Shown here: positions 3,368 through 34,810 of the stretch, one piece after another
Layout of the letters: every line of letters starts with the position of its first letter
Position numbering within the stretch: position 1 is the first letter of the stretch
From: an uncultured Candidatus Saccharibacteria bacterium
GTDB lineage: Bacteria; Patescibacteriota; Minisyncoccia; Phycocordibacterales; DATDWN01
Assembly: GCA_964391455.1 (NCBI GenBank)
Contig: CAYMJQ010000001.1
Span: 15,865 to 79,864, forward strand
DNA length: 64,000 nt
Direction of reading: 5' to 3'
Notes under the pieces: model-generated
The model's input: the letters and a program-made list of their open reading frames with translations, nothing else
Told to the model about the DNA's origin: nothing
Databases searched by the model: none
Translations under genes and position numbers: made by a program

Positions 3368-5033
3368 AAAAATACCTAAAAAAAGAAAAGTTTCAAAAAG
3401 AAAAGTGAGTGTTTTTAATAAAATACTTACACAGTCTTTAATTGCAAAAACTTTTTCTCTGTTTTTGATTTTTTCTCTGTCTTTTTTAAGTTTAGCCCCT
3501 ACTACAAATGCTTATTATAATGATATAGAAAAAAGTGTTGGAAATATATGGACTGCTGGGATATTAGATTTTGTAATAAAAAAGAAATTATTTGAAGCTT
3601 CTATAGGTCCAGAGGTCTTGGCTGAAAAAACACATGTTTCTGTTATGGCTCCAACGAATGGAAGTTTGCCAATAAAGTACACACTAAATAGTTTTATTAA
3701 AAAAGAAGATGCGGGGTTATGTGGAAAGCTTTTTGTAGAAGCTAAATTAAATGGTTTAACAAAATACTCAGGTCCATTTTCAAGTCTTATAAACAGCACC
3801 ACAACAACATTTGGAACATGGGAATTTCTATTTGATATGCCACCAGAAACAGTTGCTTCTCATGGAGACATTTGTCAGGCAGAAGCAATACTTTTTGGTT
3901 GGAGAGCAGATTCAGAGACTCCAGAAGAAAGTGTATTTACAGACACAGAAAAAATATCTTTTTCTTTCAAGGCAAAAATGGTGGTGTTAAATGAAATATA
4001 TCCAAGACCAGATGGAAGTTTGCCAGAACTTAGTCAGGAGTATATAGAACTATATAACAACGGTTCTACACCGGTTGATTTGGCTGGATGGAAAATATCT
4101 GATATGGCAAGCACTTCAGAAAAGTTTTATACAATAACCTCAACACCAGGTCCAAATACAGCCATATCTGTTGGTGGTTCCACAGTTCTACCTCCTTTAG
4201 GTTTTCTTGTGTTTAATTTGAGTGATGGTACGACTTTAAATAATTCAGGGGATACTGTTAGACTTTATGATAATAATAATGTTTTGCAAGATGCTTATAC
4301 ATACCCAGCTGTTCCAGAAGGGAAATCAATTGTAAGATTTCCTGACGGTATTGGTTTTTGGATAGATCCAGAGCCAACACCGGGAATTTCAAATGTTATT
4401 TCACTGGAAGATTTAGAAAATTCTGGTTTAGATAAGGAAACAATAAGACAAATTATTGCTTTAGCAGAGATGAAAAATGCCACAATAGTTTCTCAAGATG
4501 AAGAAAGTAATATGCAAGATATTACAAATGAGTTAATAGAAGATTTAGAATTATCTGAAATTCCAGAAGAATCAGCAACAAGTACAGAAGAAGTTATTGA
4601 AGAAGTTGTTCATGCTGAAAATATTACAGAAGAAGTTTCTCTTTCAAATGAGAATATAAAAGACACAACAGAAGAAGTTACAGAAGAAGATTCGGAAATC
4701 CTTGATGAGGTTTCTACAAGTACAGAACCATCACTTGTAGAAGGAGAGAATGAAATACCGCAGAAAATTACAGAAGAAAATGAACCTAACTTAGTAATAC
4801 TAGAAGCAGAAGAGGTTGTGGCCGAAGTTCCTCCATACAAAGAGGAGGAAATGTTTGAGATAGAAAATACTGAAAATAATATAGAAAGTACAGAAACTAA
4901 TTCTGTGATAGAGGAAATCGTAATCAAGGAGGAAGAAGTCGTATTCATACCCGAAGCACCAGAAACTTTATTCGCAGAAATTCCAGTTGTAGAAACTCCG
5001 AAAGAGGAGATATTACCGGAAATAGTTTGGTAA
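3360..5033 (+). CDS. Large secreted protein with a SipW-cognate signal motif (AYYNDIEKSVGNIWTAGILDF), a lamin-tail domain (LTD) and a long acidic Glu-rich low-complexity C-terminal tail
   Basis: The LTD signature is LNEIYPRPDGSLPELSQEYIELYNNGSTPVDLAGWKISD. The C-terminal 230 aa are dominated by E/T/S/I/V repeats. The gene is translationally coupled to sipW. Confidence 0.6.
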   Translation: MVKKIPKKRKVSKRKVSVFNKILTQSLIAKTFSLFLIFSLSFLSLAPTTNAYYNDIEKSVGNIWTAGILDFVIKKKLFEASIGPEVLAEKTHVSVMAPTNGSLPIKYTLNSFIKKEDAGLCGKLFVEAKLNGLTKYSGPFSSLINSTTTTFGTWEFLFDMPPETVASHGDICQAEAILFGWRADSETPEESVFTDTEKISFSFKAKMVVLNEIYPRPDGSLPELSQEYIELYNNGSTPVDLAGWKISDMASTSEKFYTITSTPGPNTAISVGGSTVLPPLGFLVFNLSDGTTLNNSGDTVRLYDNNNVLQDAYTYPAVPEGKSIVRFPDGIGFWIDPEPTPGISNVISLEDLENSGLDKETIRQIIALAEMKNATIVSQDEESNMQDITNELIEDLELSEIPEESATSTEEVIEEVVHAENITEEVSLSNENIKDTTEEVTEEDSEILDEVSTSTEPSLVEGENEIPQKITEENEPNLVILEAEEVVAEVPPYKEEEMFEIENTENNIESTETNSVIEEIVIKEEEVVFIPEAPETLFAEIPVVETPKEEILPEIVW

Positions 5034-5047
5034 ATAAATAGAATAAT

Positions 5048-6433
5048 ATGAAAAATTTAATTATAAAAAATAATATTTTAAGTAGAGCATTTCAATTTTT
5101 TGGAATGATGATCCTGGGAATTTTATTTTTTTCATCTTCTGCTTTGGCACAGACTCCTGTTATTGAAATAACTTTCGGTAGTAATCCACTTTTTAATGTT
5201 TCTAATTTTCTTCCCGGAGACACTGAAACAGCTTCTGTTGAAATAAAAAACAATAGTGATACAACACAATCTGCTTATGTTGAAGCGGTGACTGTTGTAG
5301 ATCCAGATAATCTCGCTAGCCAGATGCTTTTTAGAATTTTTGATGGAGTAAATCAGATTTATACTGATTCTTTTGAAGATTTTTTAAACGCAGGTCCTGT
5401 TTCTCTTAGTAACATTTCTTCTGGACAGGTAAAGGATTATGAATTTAGAGTATCTTTCATAGATTCAACAGATAATGATTATCAAGGAAAAACTCTCGGG
5501 TTTAATCTTTGTTTTGGTTTTTCTGGTGGGAATCAGTATTGTACAAACACAACCTCTGTTGGCGGTGAGCAAGGGACCGGCGGAGGGGGTGGCGGTGGTG
5601 GTAATACCACTACAACTTCCGGAGGTGGGGGAAATGGGCCACTACAACCACAATCACTTTTAATATTTAATGAAAACGTACAAGATGTCGGAGAAGGTTT
5701 TGTTCCAGAACCTACAGCTTCTGCTACTATAGTTTGGAATACAAATATTCCAGCTACTTCTCAAGTGATTTATGGACCAGACACTGGAGTTTATACTTTC
5801 GATATAAACAATCTTCCTGGATTCGGTTATCCTTTTTGGACTGAAGAAGATTTAACTAAAGTTACCAATCATTCTGTTTTAATAACTGGACTTATACCAG
5901 GTCAAACCTATGTTTATCGTGTTGTCTCAAGAGCCTCTCCACCTACAATAAGTTATGAGCATAAATTTATAGTTCCTATTTTGAAAAATAAAAACAGCAT
6001 ATCTTCGGCTGGAGGTATTGATTGGTCAAATAATAGTTACGAGACAGAGACAAATACTCAGAATTCTTATCAAAATGATGTTTCTAATAATGAAGATAAC
6101 CCTGAAGCTTCATCAAATAATGAATCAAATTTAGCAGCAGTAATCTTTTCTGATTTTGGAGGAATTGTCTCAATGTGTAGTCTGCTATCACTTTTGTTAT
6201 TAGTTTTGCTTTATTTAGTATGGAGTTTCTTTGTTAGGAAAAAATACGAGAAAAAAGGACTTCCTGAACATAAAATAAAAAGATTGTTCTACATATATTC
6301 CATTACAGTAATTTCATTTATAATCTTAATTTTGATTATAATAAGACAGTATTGTCCATTACCTGTACTTTTGGTAGCTCTCATTGTTATTTTGGTAAAA
6401 TTTTTGCTGGATAGAAATAAATTATCGTCTTAA
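5048..6433 (+). CDS. Signal-peptide protein with a Gly-rich linker, an FN3-like domain (purple-acid-phosphatase-N-like) and C-terminal transmembrane anchors
   Basis: It has an N-terminal signal peptide ending ALAQTP and a GGGGGGGGNTTTTSGGGGNG linker. The FN3-like segment is TASATIVWNTN...GLIPGQTYVYRVVS. Two or three hydrophobic helices sit at the C-terminus. Confidence 0.5.
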   Translation: MKNLIIKNNILSRAFQFFGMMILGILFFSSSALAQTPVIEITFGSNPLFNVSNFLPGDTETASVEIKNNSDTTQSAYVEAVTVVDPDNLASQMLFRIFDGVNQIYTDSFEDFLNAGPVSLSNISSGQVKDYEFRVSFIDSTDNDYQGKTLGFNLCFGFSGGNQYCTNTTSVGGEQGTGGGGGGGGNTTTTSGGGGNGPLQPQSLLIFNENVQDVGEGFVPEPTASATIVWNTNIPATSQVIYGPDTGVYTFDINNLPGFGYPFWTEEDLTKVTNHSVLITGLIPGQTYVYRVVSRASPPTISYEHKFIVPILKNKNSISSAGGIDWSNNSYETETNTQNSYQNDVSNNEDNPEASSNNESNLAAVIFSDFGGIVSMCSLLSLLLLVLLYLVWSFFVRKKYEKKGLPEHKIKRLFYIYSITVISFIILILIIIRQYCPLPVLLVALIVILVKFLLDRNKLSS

Positions 6434-10148: not shown

Positions 10149-10466
10149 TCATTTCTGAGCCTGCTCCTGCTCCGTTTCTCCGCACCGGAGATTCATTTCC
10201 AGGGGATCCCTCCGGGAGTAAGCCCCCACAGGTTCTCCGTTCCTTAGGACACCAAGGTCTACCACCTTGACCTCGCCGGTATCCGGCTTGCACAAGACAT
10301 ACACATCGAAGTGCTGAGGCCTGGCGTTTAAGGGTTTCGTGGCGATGAACCACCCCGGGTTCTCGCCGAGAACGTACCTGTCAGCGTCGGTACGGCCGTA
10401 CGTCCTTCCTTCGCAGCCGATCGTGACAACCATCACCACCAGCAATAGTAGGATCTTCATAATCAT
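10149..10466 (-). CDS. Small lipoprotein (105 aa) encoded in a high-GC island
   Basis: The signal peptide MIMKILLLLVVMVVTIGC has a lipobox-like TIGC. Local GC is about 55-60% against roughly 33% in the flanks. There is no recognisable domain. Confidence 0.5.
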   Translation of the reverse strand: MIMKILLLLVVMVVTIGCEGRTYGRTDADRYVLGENPGWFIATKPLNARPQHFDVYVLCKPDTGEVKVVDLGVLRNGEPVGAYSRRDPLEMNLRCGETEQEQAQK

Positions 10467-15693: not shown

Positions 15694-16167
15694 GTGACTT
15701 TTGTCTCAAAGGTAATGAAGAGATTAAATAAAAATGAATGGGTTGCTGTGACAGTTTCTGTTTTTGTGGTTGGTTTTTTTCTTGTTTTTGGGAATTGGTT
15801 TTTATCTTTTTTTTCTAACTCTAATAATAATTTAACTCAAAATTTGCCACTTATGGCCCAAGACGTGGTTATGGGTTTGGGTGAGGAAGTTAAGTTAGGC
15901 GATAGAGTTGTGGTTCATTATACTGGAAGCTTTGCTGACGGGACTATTTTTGATAGTTCTCTTTACAGAAACGAACCTCTTCAATTTACAGTGGGTGCTG
16001 GACAGGTAATTCAAGGTTGGGATCAAGGTGTACAGGGGATGAAAGTTGGTGGTGTAAGAGTTCTTTCAATACCACCGGAGCTTGGTTACGGTTTTCAGGA
16101 TTATGGACCAATACCAGCTGGATCAACTCTTATATTTGAAATTGAATTACTTAGGGTAGATAGATAA
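15694..16167 (+). CDS. FKBP-type peptidyl-prolyl cis-trans isomerase with an N-terminal membrane anchor
   Basis: GDRVVVHYTGSFADGTIFDSS...VIQGWDQGVQGMKVGGVRVLSIPPELGYG is a canonical FKBP signature. Confidence 0.85.
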   Translation: MTFVSKVMKRLNKNEWVAVTVSVFVVGFFLVFGNWFLSFFSNSNNNLTQNLPLMAQDVVMGLGEEVKLGDRVVVHYTGSFADGTIFDSSLYRNEPLQFTVGAGQVIQGWDQGVQGMKVGGVRVLSIPPELGYGFQDYGPIPAGSTLIFEIELLRVDR

Positions 16168-16242
16168 ATATCTTTTATTACCCCCCTTATTTTAAAAAAA
16201 TATTCCTACTACGATATATCGTAGTAAAATACATTTCAAAAA

Positions 16243-16267
16243 ACAGCTTAAAATAAGCTGTTTTTTG
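16243..16267 (+). terminator. Intrinsic terminator after the FKBP gene (ACAGCTT-AAAAT-AAGCTGT followed by T6)
   Basis: Read directly from the sequence. Confidence 0.6.
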
Positions 16268-16280
16268 CATCCAAAAATAT

Positions 16281-16309
16281 TTGACAAATTTTTTTGGATA
16301 TGCTACACT
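16281..16309 (+). promoter_or_regulatory. Near-consensus sigma70-type promoter: TTGACA, a 17-nt spacer ending TGc, then TACACT (extended -10)
   Basis: Read directly. It lies immediately upstream of the GC-rich structured region. Confidence 0.5.
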
Positions 16310-16315
16310 GTTTAC

Positions 16316-16612
16316 GGACTGCTAAGGAGGGCTATAATACACGCCCGTAAGTCGGGTAGATCCAATCTGCTCGTTGGATCGGGGCCAAGCGGCCTGTTTC
16401 GTTGCCAGAGCCTGCTCTCCAGAGGAGCCAAGGTCCCCATTAGGGGCCAAGGTAATCCATCCTCGTCCAGACAAAAATCTGGTGAGGAGGATTCTCGCCA
16501 GGTTTTATGCCCAAAGTTCGAGCCCTAAGCAAGCTCGTTCAAAGGGACTGGGTAGTGGTCCTGCACTCCGTGGCCGATGGTACCGAAAGGTACTGTCGGC
16601 AACGGGGTTTTT
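16316..16612 (+). ncRNA. About 300-nt GC-rich structured ncRNA of unassigned family. It is a discrete transcription unit with its own promoter and an intrinsic terminator (17-bp stem, GAAA tetraloop, then GGUUUUU at 16568-16612)
   Basis: Local GC is about 55% in a roughly 33% genome. There are multiple internal hairpins (e.g. GGAUCCAA...UUGGAUC, GAGGGC...GCCC). Two overlapping ORFs (16265-16528, 16374-16652) lack an SD and look spurious. Short matches to the SRP-Alu and RNase P P4 regions (CUGCUAAGGAGGG, GUAAGUCGGGU) are not decisive. Confidence 0.4.
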
Positions 16613-16648
16613 CTTTATAAAAAAAATTAATAATGTTAGATTATTTAA

Positions 16649-17860
16649 ATGAATAAACCTTTAAGGTTTGAAATACAAAAGGAAATACCTGATTCATTAG
16701 GGAGGGTTGGCACAATAACAACACCTCATGGAGAAATACTAACTCCAGCTTTTGTAACTGTTGGCACAAAAGGGACTGTAAAATCACTTACTCCAGAACA
16801 AGTTAAAGATACCGGCGTACAAACTATTATTTGTAATACTTATCATCTTTATTTAGAACCTGGACCAGAAAATGTGGCAAAAATGGGTGGGCTTCATAAG
16901 ATGATGAATTGGTCAGGACCTCTTATGACTGATTCTGGAGGTTTTCAGGTTTTTTCACTTGGTGTGGCGTATGGAGCAGGTCTTAGTAAGGTTGCTCATG
17001 GTAAAACAAATGAACTTCTTTTGTCTGATACAAAAGAAGAAAACGATAAACCTAAAATAGCTAAAATTGATCCTAATGGGGTTATGTTTAGAGACCACTC
17101 TCGTGGCGATGCACATTATTTTACTCCAGAAAAATCTATAGAAATTCAGCACGCTTTAGGAGCGGATATTATTTTTGCATTTGATGAATGCACTTCACCA
17201 AATGAAACTGACCATTATCAAAGAGAAGCATTGGATAGAACACAAAGATGGGCAAAACAATCACTTGAATATCATAAATCAAAACCAAATTGTGAGACTC
17301 AGGCGCTATTTGGGATTGTACAAGGTGGTAGAAGTGAGAAGCTAAGAAAAGAGAGTGCTGAGTTTATCGGCAGTTTAGATTTTGATGGTTTTGGTATTGG
17401 AGGTTCTTTTGATAAAGAGGATATGAATAAAGCAGTGGAGTGGGTAAACACAATACTTCCAAAAGAAAAACCAAGACACCTTCTAGGTATAGGAGAACCG
17501 GAAGATCTTTTTATGGCAGTTGAAAATGGTTGTGATTTGTTTGATTGTGTTGCTCCAACTCGTATTGCAAGAAATGGTGGGGCTTATACAAAAAATGGAA
17601 AGATAAATTTGATGAATGAAAGATTTAGAGATGAGTTAGGCCCTATTGATGATGATTGCAAATGTTATACATGTAAGAATTTTTCTAAAAGTTATGTCGC
17701 CCATCTTTTTCATAGTAAAGAAATGCTTGCTTCTACACTAACATCTATACACAATATTCAGTTTATATCAGGTCTTGTTTCAAAAATACGAGAAGAAATG
17801 TTGAGTGGTGATTTTAAAAAATATAAGAAAGAATTTCTGTCAAATTATTTGAATTTTTAA
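16649..17860 (+). CDS. tgt: Queuine tRNA-ribosyltransferase
   Basis: LTPAFVTVGTKGTVK, DCVAPTRIARNG and the Zn site CKCYTCKNFSKSYVAHL are present. Confidence 0.9.
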   Translation: MNKPLRFEIQKEIPDSLGRVGTITTPHGEILTPAFVTVGTKGTVKSLTPEQVKDTGVQTIICNTYHLYLEPGPENVAKMGGLHKMMNWSGPLMTDSGGFQVFSLGVAYGAGLSKVAHGKTNELLLSDTKEENDKPKIAKIDPNGVMFRDHSRGDAHYFTPEKSIEIQHALGADIIFAFDECTSPNETDHYQREALDRTQRWAKQSLEYHKSKPNCETQALFGIVQGGRSEKLRKESAEFIGSLDFDGFGIGGSFDKEDMNKAVEWVNTILPKEKPRHLLGIGEPEDLFMAVENGCDLFDCVAPTRIARNGGAYTKNGKINLMNERFRDELGPIDDDCKCYTCKNFSKSYVAHLFHSKEMLASTLTSIHNIQFISGLVSKIREEMLSGDFKKYKKEFLSNYLNF

Positions 17861-17897
17861 TTTTATGTTAAAAAGTATCGTATAATTTAGTAATTAT

Positions 17898-22870: not shown

Positions 22871-22907
22871 TTAAAATGAAAACTGGCGCCGAAACGAATC
22901 GACGCCA
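22871..22907 (-). terminator. Hairpin (CTGGCG...CGCCAG) with a minus-strand U-tract. It terminates the small minus-strand ORF and also sits just past the uvrA stop
   Basis: Read directly. Confidence 0.45.
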
Positions 22908-22919
22908 GCTACGGGAACC

Positions 22920-23063
22920 TCACAGATAGCCCTCCTTTTTGAACGGATCCACCTCGTCCACGAGGTGGAAAAATTCGCTGATCGGCTCCACCACCACCTC
23001 TTTCACGAGGTAGATGGCGCCGACTCCAATCAGAACGAGTGCCGGAAGATTGTATTCCAGCAT
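22920..23063 (-). CDS. Candidate 47-aa membrane peptide (MLEYNLPALVLIGVGAIYLVKEVVVEPISEFFHLVDEVDPFKKEGYL) in a high-GC patch
   Basis: GGAGGTG SD sits 4 nt upstream of the ATG at 23063. It has one predicted TM helix. Local GC is about 55%. The 66-aa ORF listed at 22909-23109 is in another frame and looks spurious. Confidence 0.3.
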   Translation of the reverse strand: MLEYNLPALVLIGVGAIYLVKEVVVEPISEFFHLVDEVDPFKKEGYL

Positions 23064-23081
23064 TGACACCTCCACTACATA

Positions 23082-26275: not shown

Positions 26276-26399
26276 GGGCCCGTAGCTCATCTGGTAGAGT
26301 GAGATTGGGTAAGGGAACCAATCGCAAGATCGGAGGCTGGCCGGGCCGAGGTGGGGTCGCAAAATTTTTAACAAAAAATTATTGTGACCATCATTTGCA
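26276..26399 (+). pseudogene. Chimeric tRNA-Ala fragment: an exact copy of nt 1-24 of the downstream tRNA-Ala(UGC), an 89-nt GC-rich unrelated insert, then an 11-nt copy of the anticodon-arm segment (CATCATTTGCA). There is no 3' half
   Basis: There are direct sequence identities to 26429-26452 and 26455-26465. The fragment cannot fold into a complete tRNA. Confidence 0.5.
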
Positions 26400-26428: not shown

Positions 26429-26501
26429 GGGCCCGTAGCTCATCTGGTAGAGCACATCATTTGCAATGATGGGGTGGCAGGTTCGAGTCCTGTCGGGTCC
26501 A
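26429..26501 (+). tRNA. tRNA-Ala (anticodon UGC)
   Basis: Acceptor GGGCCCG/CGGGUCC with G3-U70, D-arm GCUCAUCUGGUAGAGC, anticodon loop UUUGCAA, T-arm GCAGG-UUCGAGU-CCUGU. It is 73 nt long and CCA is not encoded. Confidence 0.9.
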
Positions 26502-26505
26502 CAGA

Positions 26506-26667: not shown

Positions 26668-26683
26668 TCCTGTCGGGTCCACA
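26668..26683 (+). repeat. 16-nt exact direct repeat of the 3' end of tRNA-Ala(UGC) (TCCTGTCGGGTCCACA; about 20 nt with one mismatch), 165 bp downstream of the gene. It is followed by its own terminator at 26696-26720
   Basis: Identity with 26488-26503 was read directly. The downstream hairpin is CTCTGG-TTAGTT-CCAGAG followed by T6. Confidence 0.6.
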
Positions 26684-34018: not shown

Positions 34019-34810
34019 GTGAAGAACATCGTTTGGTGTGTTTTTGTTCTGGGTCTTCTCGTTGCTCTGGAGGGCGACGTCAAGGCCCAGATCGGCGGTG
34101 TCCAGCTGGACACCACCTGTGTCACTGGGACCGAAGGGGGTTGCAAGCCCCCGACGGAACCCACCCCCGCCCCAGGGCCTCCCGGACCGCCGGGACCCCA
34201 GGGCCCTCCGGGGCCGGCTGGTCCACAGGGGCCCGAAGGACCCAAGGGGGATCCGGGTCCCCAGGGGCCCGAAGGCCCTCCTGGACCGCCCGGAGGCGAG
34301 TGCGTCGAGAACATGAGTGAGTGGGCTCACTGGGATGGGGACGTCCCGTTGGTCTACATGGATACCACAGACGTGATGCTCACGATCCCCCGGGGCAATT
34401 GTCGTCCCAACGACATGCTTTGGTATGATCGTGAGTCGCGGGTGATGCTTTTCTGGGATTACAATCACCCTTCCGGAACCCCGCACGTTACGGGATTCCG
34501 TCGTGGTGGGGAAATTCCCGTCTGGACTCACATTGCTGTGCTGACGCCTCGAGTTTTTCATTTCGTGGCATCGGCTCCGCACAACCACGGACCCAACAGT
34601 CCGGCAAGGTTTCCAACGCATTTCTGCACAGTCGGCCTGGGGAACATGATCCTTGGGGCGACAAAGAAGGGTGTCTACTACGGTTCATACCCCATCACCA
34701 TCCTCACAACATACGGGACGATTCCACTCACGGAAATCACCCCGGAAGTGTGGGAAGCAATGGTCGGCCACGACCATGACCACATGGAGATGACTCCTCC
34801 CGGCAAGTAA
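34019..34810 (+). CDS. Secreted collagen-like triple-helix repeat protein (13 G-X-Y triplets, [40 protein letters not shown]) with a 170-aa C-terminal globular domain. It is encoded in a 60% GC island
   Basis: It uses a GTG start 7 nt after AAGGAGG. There is a signal peptide ([16 protein letters not shown]) and a His-rich C-terminus (GHDHDHMEM). The gene has its own promoter and terminator. The GC composition contrasts sharply with the flanks. Confidence 0.6.

Follow-up and report, generated by a model that had tools for sequence, protein, structure and literature searches.

We analysed a 64,000-nucleotide (nt) stretch of contig CAYMJQ010000001.1, from an uncultured Candidatus Saccharibacteria bacterium (hereafter the window, with positions counted from its first letter), and found that the spacer between its FKBP and tgt genes holds a unit (16281-16612, + strand) that probably encodes a functional accessory RNA, independently transcribed and belonging to a new family. 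The original prediction for this unit, made from its letters and open reading frames (ORFs), was of a discrete promoter-to-terminator unit encoding a structured RNA of about 300 nt and of unassigned family, and homologues, fold and layout support it. The RNA family is new; "new" applies to the family and not to its mechanism, whose novelty cannot be read from sequence.

Homologues, covariation and gene layout

Five homologues were recovered, all in the FKBP-tgt spacer of related Paceibacteria/Zambryskibacteria-like metagenome-assembled genomes (MAGs), at loci denoted L127, L031, L016, L005 and L138/L139; the tgt protein likewise groups the window with Patescibacteria MAGs (Paceibacteria, "Zambryskibacteria" and "Minisyncoccia"). 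Single-sequence nhmmer and blastn searches with the RNA against 80 tgt loci found no copy, because the homologues are too diverged. Reading the FKBP-tgt spacers revealed GC-rich promoter-to-terminator units in many relatives, and L005 and L016 were seen, by eye and by regular expression, to share with the window the end motifs 5' GGAYUGC and 3' GGUAGURRUCY; L127 was added by protein look-ups, L031 by a profile hidden Markov model and L138/L139 by a covariance model (CM). A CM (R1) trained on nothing but the window copy's 3' 157 nt matched over its full length L127 (55.8 bits, E = 1.8e-14), L031 (28.5 bits, E = 1.4e-6) and L016 (23.2 bits, E = 4.8e-5). A second model (R2), built from the window, L127, L031 and L016, recovered the sequences on which it had not been trained, L005 (35.4 bits, E = 1e-6) and L138/L139 (61.2 bits, E = 3e-15), and gave no further match in either the related loci (0.9 Mb) or the viral contigs (0.5 Mb) searched. 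Motif-pattern scans (CCTAAGCAA..RGGTAGTRRTCY and TAAGCAAG..GGTAGTRRTC), one of metagenomes and two of viral collections, IMG/VR contigs included, gave chance matches only, in one repeated phage coding region and in plant-like contigs; the first pattern was too strict, because L127 has CUUAAGCAA and L031 has CCUGGAAAA together with GAUAGU. BLAST in "distant" mode found no match among phage and plasmid records. The family counts at least six members, six being a lower bound.

Covariation was counted after the alignment of the six distinct sequences had been curated by hand and its variable stretches replaced by N; MAFFT left this alignment unchanged. Standard pairs occupy 96.8% of the 250 cells, and 33 of the 47 pairs have changed on both sides, so that the covariation expected of a structured RNA is present. 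None of 500 shuffles did as well, and sliding the partners by 1 to 3 columns left only 32 to 51% of cells paired. Every helix contributes compensatory or flanking covarying pairs, and the columns of the pseudoknot and of hairpin A (Table 1) pair in a MAFFT alignment made from sequence only as well, where RNAalifold predicts both. The + strand has a minimum free energy (MFE) of -138 kcal/mol (z = -5.2; 0 of 100 shuffles were as stable) and the - strand a z-score of -3.9; the z-scores in three members are -5.2 (window), -7.8 and -4.3.

The layout of the unit recurs together with its fold. In five of the six members (window, L127, L016, L138 and L005), an arrangement of TTGACA, 17 nt, an optional TG and a -10 element ends 6 to 7 nt before the first G of helix P1, and in all six a strong hairpin and U-run, equivalent to the window's terminator, stand 0 to 4 nt after P1 and the conserved 3' end. 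This recurrence of promoter, RNA and terminator in five homologues places the window unit beyond chance. The promoter had been correctly read from the letters; it scores 10/12, with the TG, and ranks first among the promoter-like sites of the 1.4 kb scanned, and since matches of this class are not enriched over shuffles it counts only together with its conservation in homologues. The promoter region is also common to relatives carrying unrelated cassettes. A TATAAT at 16333-16338 was considered as a second promoter and rejected, as it belongs to a conserved CUAUAAU stretch within the RNA. The GAAA-capped hairpin was rightly taken for an intrinsic terminator, and its stem, given as 17 base pairs (bp), comes close to the 7 + 12 bp (19 bp) found; a simple terminator scan does not list it. 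The GC content, estimated at about 55%, is 55.6% over the RNA body (16316-16612), against 32.9% for the whole window and 35 to 37% for the flanking genes.

The unit has no sign of coding for a protein. As had been noted, its ORFs are overlapping only, with no obvious Shine-Dalgarno sequence. The four members checked share no ORF, those present differing in frame, strand and sequence, and no ATG is preceded by a ribosome-binding (Shine-Dalgarno) site. Indels between members are not multiples of three, and the conserved frame, start codon and ribosome-binding site of a small protein-coding gene are missing.

Predicted architecture

The architecture in Table 1 was derived by comparing MFE folds and alignments, with coordinates mapped to the window. 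The RNA would fold as a compact multi-helix junction in which P1 joins both ends, P2 encloses the variable hairpin domain and the invariant CYAGAG strand, and P3 presents an invariant UCC; the GGA in the loop of hairpin B would pair with this UCC of the P3 loop to form the pseudoknot, P6 would bear the CCUAAGCAA loop, and GRUAGU would close the junction.

Table 1. Positions of predicted features of the RNA unit and of its borders in the window
Feature	Position	Strand	Description
FKBP gene hairpin terminator	16237-16267		Upstream boundary of the cassette site; conserved in relatives
Sigma-70-type promoter	16281-16309	+	-35 TTGACA 16281-16286; 17-nt spacer; extended -10 TGcTACACT 16301-16309 (TACACT 16304-16309)
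Predicted transcript, ~297 nt	16316-16612	+	Start from promoter spacing and conserved 5' GGAYUGC; end at terminator U-run
P1	16316-16322 (GGACUGC) with 16555-16561 (GUGGUCC)	+	95% of cells paired; 2 compensatory pairs
P2	16326-16332 (GGAGGGC, "SD-like" stretch) with 16414-16420 (GCUCUCC)	+	100% paired; 5 of 7 pairs compensatory
Variable 5' hairpin domain	16333-16404	+	Enclosed by P2; hairpins 16344-16356, 16359-16380, 16381-16394
Unpaired motif CCAGAG	16405-16410	+	CYAGAG in 6 of 6 members
P3	16422-16426 (GAGGA) with 16460-16464 (UCCUC)	+	94% paired; 5 of 6 pairs compensatory
Optional hairpin in P3 loop, GGUCCC-CAUUA-GGGGCC	16432-16448	+	In window, L127, L031; absent in L016, L138, L005
Pseudoknot	16454-16458 (AAUCC) with 16489-16493 (GGAUU, hairpin B loop)	+	100% paired
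Hairpin A, CCAGA-CAAAAA-UCUGG	16467-16482	+	5 bp, 16467-16471 with 16478-16482; 4 of 5 pairs compensatory (five sequences)
Hairpin B, UCUGGUGAG / CUCGCCAGG	16478-16502	+	9 bp, 16478-16486 with 16494-16502; loop GAGGAUU; followed by UUUUAU
P6 stem-loop	16510-16546	+	Lower stem CCC/GGG, upper stem GAGC/GCUC; conserved 9-nt loop CCUAAGCAA 16524-16532
GGUAGU junction running into P1 3' strand GUGGUCC	16551-16561	+	GRUAGU in 6 of 6 members
Intrinsic terminator	16565-16616	+	Hairpin 16565-16608, 7 + 12 bp, 1 x 1 internal loop, GAAA loop; then UUUUUCUUU
Extended -10-like TGtTAGATT	16634-16642	+	~7 nt before tgt ATG (16649), 3' of RNA terminator

Within P2, the 5'-domain hairpins vary in number and sequence between members. 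The second of those in the window has the loop UCUGCUCG, kept as ..UGCUY.. across the family, on a stem that differs in sequence between members and keeps its pairing, as read from the sequences with no formal count. The CYAGAG strand has no conserved pairing partner in the six members. Around the pseudoknot, the UCC/GGA core is invariant and three flanking pairs covary. Hairpin B ranges from 7 to 15 bp across the family (94% paired, 9 of 10 pairs compensatory) and appears as a 15-bp hairpin in the MFE fold; the U-run 3' of it is not conserved. The lower stem of P6 is 100% paired with 5 of 6 pairs compensatory, and the upper stem 96% with 4 of 4.

Hairpins A and B compete, because the 3' strand of A doubles as the lower 5' strand of B; both show compensatory changes. 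We prefer to treat P3, hairpin B and the pseudoknot as the putative functional fold; hairpin A is possibly a folding intermediate or, because it competes with lower hairpin B, part of a local conformational toggle. Two other pairings were rejected: a fully nested long hairpin predicted by RNAalifold (the pseudoknot helix, the P3 3' strand with upper B, and A), because its middle helix has no compensatory change and many unpaired cells, and a helix of GCCAG (16404-16408) with CUGG (16548-16551), where L127 and L031 have CCAG at the 3' site. In five of the six members the UGCU(Y) loop of the 5' domain could form a kissing interaction with AAGCA in the P6 loop; the bases in question are conserved and do not covary.

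We suggest that transcription from the strong sigma-70-type promoter would start at G16316 and stop at the intrinsic terminator, and that the folded core of the RNA most likely serves a role in trans, as a protein- or ligand-binding scaffold or possibly as a catalytic RNA; among protein-binding scaffold, ligand sensor and ribozyme we favour none. Its contact or active sites are likely to be the two invariant unpaired junction motifs, CYAGAG and GRUAGU, and the CCUAAGCAA loop.

Several points weigh against this interpretation. The comparison comprises only six distinct sequences from one clade and one locus; the shuffle statistics are inflated because the members share ancestry, and the alignment, curated around the proposed helices, leans toward structure. 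The competition of hairpins A and B is not universal, as the two do not overlap in L138. Both transcript ends are inferred from sequence features, and the accessory status described below is judged at the FKBP-tgt locus only. Sites complementary to the P6 loop number 11 in the window against 16 expected, which gives no target signal, and no partner protein, ligand or target is suggested by the data.

Comparison with known RNAs

Rfam 15 (4227 covariance models) was searched in gathering-threshold mode and in a permissive E-value mode (E <= 10). In gathering mode the 64-kb window yielded two tRNA-Ala genes only, and 10 related loci yielded no match. In E-value mode a 551-nt query (16150-16700) yielded nothing meaningful over the RNA body, and five members (window, L127, L005, L016 and L031, that is, all except the L138/L139 locus) yielded no match to the body and no recurring family. 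These results favour the unassigned family of the original prediction: the RNA belongs to no Rfam family and to none of raiA, OLE, ROOL and GOLLD. Models of preQ1-I, -II and -III and other riboswitches gave no match in the five members, and those of HEARO, omega-RNA and retrons gave none in E-value mode.

Long signal recognition particle (SRP) RNA, 6S RNA, an unusual RNase P RNA and transfer-messenger RNA (tmRNA) had been listed as fitting the size of the unit, and none of them finds support. The RNase P (RF00010/RF00011), small and large bacterial SRP, 6S (RF00013) and tmRNA models gave no match even at E <= 10 with the 551-nt query, nor in the other members searched, and ARAGORN found no tmRNA. 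Absent from all six members are the RNase P motifs CR-I (GAGGAAAGUCC) and CR-V (ACAGAAnnCGGCUUA) and the SRP domain IV motif (GGAAGCAGCCA region, with a GNAR tetraloop), each within 3 mismatches, and the tmRNA T-arm motif GGUUCGAAUCC within 2; by eye, too, canonical P4, SRP domain IV and tmRNA ends had gone unseen. The 3' strand of P1 is followed by the terminator and not by a discriminator base and CCA as in tmRNA, and the fold supported by covariation is a multi-helix junction with a pseudoknot and not the rod of 6S RNA. RNase P RNA, being essential, would be expected in one copy in each genome of the clade; at the FKBP-tgt locus, the one locus examined, the window RNA is missing in most relatives, and a small ORF stands in its place in strains with a tgt about 98% identical. 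Two short matches that had been called suggestive are coincidental: CUGCUAAGGAGGG forms the 5' strands of P1 (partner 16555-16561) and P2 (partner 16414-16420), and GUAAGUCGGGU forms a small hairpin of the variable 5' domain that is absent in L016.

In general character the RNA comes close to the raiA motif RNA, OLE, ROOL and GOLLD (PMC6429828, PMC8632094, PMC11109978), which are likewise stand-alone genes, 200 to more than 300 nt long, for RNAs with numerous helices, a pseudoknot and invariant nucleotides at the junction, form GC-rich islands in AT-rich genomes (the basis of GC-IGR/DIMPL searches) and have no established biochemical function. It matches none of them in sequence or structure (Rfam 15), is known from only six loci in one Paceibacteria clade and sits at a site where units are swapped in and out. 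It resembles 6S RNA in having a promoter and a terminator of its own, a closing helix that joins its two ends, a length of a few hundred nt and an apparently non-essential nature, but it is a branched junction with a pseudoknot and not a rod with a central bubble. RNase P RNA resembles it in having a P1 that closes the molecule and in being multi-domain, pseudoknotted and GC-rich; the window RNA, in contrast, lacks CR-I and CR-V and hence P4, its P2 encloses an internal domain, and near-identical strains do without it at the FKBP-tgt locus. Its position directly upstream of tgt recalls preQ1 riboswitches and other leaders of queuosine genes, and ligand binding by the conserved junction is conceivable in principle. 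PreQ1-I aptamers are about 34 nt long. The window RNA is roughly 10 times larger than preQ1 riboswitches, has its own constitutive-looking terminator, is followed by a tgt gene with a putative promoter of its own and is missing at most tgt genes. Finally, the invariant GGA in the loop of hairpin B and, in the window copy, further AGGA/GGAG stretches are reminiscent of CsrB/RsmZ-type sponge small RNAs (sRNAs), but only one GGA loop is conserved, it covaries with the UCC strand as the pseudoknot and so is not freely exposed, and the other GGA stretches are strands of P2 and P3.

A variable spacer between FKBP and tgt

The unit was correctly placed between an FKBP gene and tgt: an FKBP_C isomerase gene (15694-16167) lies upstream and a TGT gene (16649-17860) downstream, followed farther out by genes for a pseudouridine synthase and a LOG-like protein upstream and for UvrB and UvrA downstream, all of them housekeeping genes. 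FKBP-tgt synteny was found in 48 loci, with spacers of -13 to 1575 nt; in distant relatives (tgt at most 63% identical) the two genes mostly abut or overlap, and in the window's clade the spacer is 53 to 1575 nt long. About 40 of the 48 syntenic loci lack the RNA. The spacer is empty at L001, L003, L008, L011 and L135. It holds the window RNA family at six loci, a ~340-nt "UUUGCGACU" RNA at L127, L128 to L134 and L137, CU-rich units at L002 and L004, other units at L013, L015 and L136, and a small hydrophobic ORF at L006, L007 and L009, where tgt and its L005 counterpart are about 98% identical. Three different units follow one another in tandem at L127, each with a TTGACA promoter and a terminator of its own.

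Loci with different cassettes are alike over the window's 16238-16305 (FKBP terminator and promoter) and 16609-16646 (U-run to tgt start), and between cassette types this similarity stops at the transcribed body. TGYTAAWNT-like elements stand at the site of the window's TGtTAGATT in relatives with and without a cassette, about 7 to 10 nt before the tgt ATG, and the window's copy is putatively tgt's own promoter. Patchy presence and unrelated cassettes in one spacer indicate that the RNA is accessory, and its sequence context marks it as a putative accessory cassette at a hypervariable hot spot. This status argues against both an essential housekeeping role and a tgt-specific leader.

Other cassettes at the site deserve description in their own right. 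At about 400 to 640 of the spacers of L006 and L009, an ORF of about 50 amino acids (aa), hydrophobic, stands behind a similar promoter and replaces the RNA, and L010 has a longer, GC-richer ORF (~200-850) with the same terminator at its end; the site therefore exchanges protein as well as RNA cassettes. A second, unrelated promoter-to-terminator RNA of about 285 to 340 nt occupies the same spacer (L127:2122-2463, L128:2123-2464, L130:2156-2440 and L137:1523-1864). It starts with ..GUUUGCGACU.., pairing with ..AAAGUCGAUAG.., and has A-rich linkers and an invariant GGGAGGUGUGCGCACACCUCCC hairpin; over L127 it had no Rfam match, and a 92-aa ORF annotated within it is probably spurious. Several cassette RNAs share a 3' module (L127:~1985-2075 and ~2380-2466, L128:~2385-2464, L137:~1785-1864 and L136:~470-560) in which CCCC..GGGG and CGGU..ACCG (in L136, GCGAGU..ACUCGC) are interleaved, giving an H-type pseudoknot around UCGUAGGGGC; the terminator comes next. 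This module bears only a weak, sub-threshold resemblance to BjrC68, and the window RNA does not have it.

Near-perfect AT-rich palindromes of 24 to 28 bp (e.g., TTTCACAGCGATATATCGCTGTGAAA) adjoin cassettes in the window (16204-16229), in L004 (~5605-5632 and ~5903-5930) and in L002 (~4050-4077). The two that flank the L004 unit are identical, and between genomes the palindrome arms covary; possible functions are as operators or as hairpin boundary or recombination sites. The tgt-uvrB spacer is variable too (L130:3760-3957, L136:1859-2389, L138:3085-3705 and L142:1504-1803), holding HTH_17/excisionase-like, MerR-like, pilin-like N_methyl or unidentified small genes, and it is empty in the window (17861-17897).

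Elsewhere in the window, other GC-rich islands (50 to 80% GC) at 10149-10466 (-), ~22900-23065 (-) and 34019-34810 (+) are small protein minigenes between housekeeping genes, each with its own promoter and terminator. Their products are a 105-aa lipoprotein-like ORF with no Pfam match, a membrane peptide of about 55 aa and a 263-aa secreted protein with collagen GPP repeats (PF01391). The tRNA-Ala(UGC) gene (26429-26502) has its first 24 nt repeated 128 nt upstream (26277-26300) and its last 14 nt repeated 167 nt downstream (26670-26683), with GC-rich non-coding stretches between the gene and these partial repeats, which look like integration scars or att-type repeats.

Alternative explanations

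As all six members lie directly upstream of tgt, the RNA might be taken for a cis-regulatory leader or riboswitch of this gene that senses, for example, a queuosine-pathway metabolite or a tRNA and controls terminator read-through; the conserved junction with its invariant unpaired nucleotides, the competition of hairpin A with lower B and the UUUUAU after hairpin B in the window would suit such a role. However, a strong terminator follows P1 in every member, the P1 3' strand and the terminator stem have neither the overlap nor the complementarity, in the sequences compared, from which an antiterminator could form, and tgt keeps a -10-like element downstream of the terminator whether or not the RNA is there. 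Most tgt genes of the clade do without the RNA, FKBP and tgt abut or overlap in more distant relatives, unrelated RNAs and small proteins occupy the same spot, no riboswitch model matches, and the U-run after hairpin B is not conserved. We regard a leader of tgt as quite improbable. It is somewhat less far-fetched, though still unlikely, that the RNA serves a mobile or defence system encoded elsewhere, as a guide or scaffold for an RNA-guided nuclease or recombinase, a non-coding RNA associated with a reverse transcriptase, or an RNA antitoxin or decoy. Its patchy, cassette-like distribution in a hypervariable spot, the small HTH_17/excisionase-like genes just 3' of tgt in relatives, and the other GC-rich accessory minigenes and scar-like partial tRNA-Ala repeats of the window are in keeping with such a role. 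Yet no gene for a reverse transcriptase, IscB/TnpB/Cas, IS110 or a toxin adjoins any of the six copies, whose neighbours are housekeeping genes, P1 locks both ends and leaves no free variable guide segment, and neither the HEARO, omega-RNA and retron models nor the phage and plasmid records and the IMG/VR contigs gave a match.

We give hardly any credence to the idea of an RNase P, SRP, 6S or tmRNA housekeeping RNA so divergent that it escapes the Rfam models in the candidate phyla radiation (CPR), even though the core of about 250 nt, the closing helix, the pseudoknot, the strength of promoter and terminator and the contrast of a GC-rich island with its AT-rich genome would all befit one, and the gathering-mode search found no other candidate in the window. 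Besides the negative model, ARAGORN and motif searches, the fold is branched and not a 6S-type rod, P2 closes an internal domain instead of lying beside P1 as in RNase P RNA, and a small protein gene takes the place of the RNA where tgt is about 98% identical, unlike what is expected of an essential RNA at a fixed locus. That the unit is non-functional, either a leftover of GC-rich foreign DNA or a small protein gene in decay, flanked by a promoter and a terminator only by chance, also seems very improbable. The same genome does have GC-rich protein minigenes with their own promoters and terminators, related spacers do hold small ORF cassettes, and GC-rich sequence folds stably in any case, as the z-score of the minus strand illustrates; but six diverged copies keep their helices by compensatory changes, CYAGAG, UCC/GGA, CCUAAGCAA and GRUAGU stay fixed, there is no conserved frame and indels are not in triplets, and the slid controls pair far less well.

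Beyond the favoured reading of a functional, independently transcribed accessory RNA, we tentatively raise a broader hypothesis, possible though doubtful as it stands: the FKBP-tgt spacer may be an exchangeable "RNA cassette" site whose bodies are swapped via shared flanks (FKBP terminator and promoter on one side, U-run and tgt promoter on the other). At least three to four unrelated large pseudoknotted RNAs would circulate there together with small membrane proteins, among them the window family, the ~340-nt "UUUGCGACU..." RNA and others with the CCCCGAG..UCGUAGGGGC 3' pseudoknot module, and the window RNA would represent a new class of strain-variable functional RNA (a ribozyme, a sensor or an RNA-based conflict element) in episymbiotic bacteria and not a conventional regulatory sRNA.

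Significance

CPR/Patescibacteria make up a large share of bacterial diversity, and their non-coding RNAs are almost undescribed. A survey of GC-rich intergenic non-coding RNAs in 50 genomes does not mention CPR genomes, nor do the papers we found on the discovery of such RNAs, and our literature search on structured non-coding RNAs in CPR/Patescibacteria found no study of those of this group. In 250 to 300 nt, RNAs of this type combine a multi-helix junction with a pseudoknot and invariant nucleotides at the junction. Experimentally characterised RNAs of like complexity include ribozymes, ligand sensors and the cores of ribonucleoproteins, which makes the new family a concrete target for biochemistry. 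The setting is out of the ordinary as well: several unrelated structured-RNA and small-protein cassettes that replace one another between fixed flanks, beside housekeeping genes, suggest a reservoir of strain-specific functional RNAs in these very small genomes.

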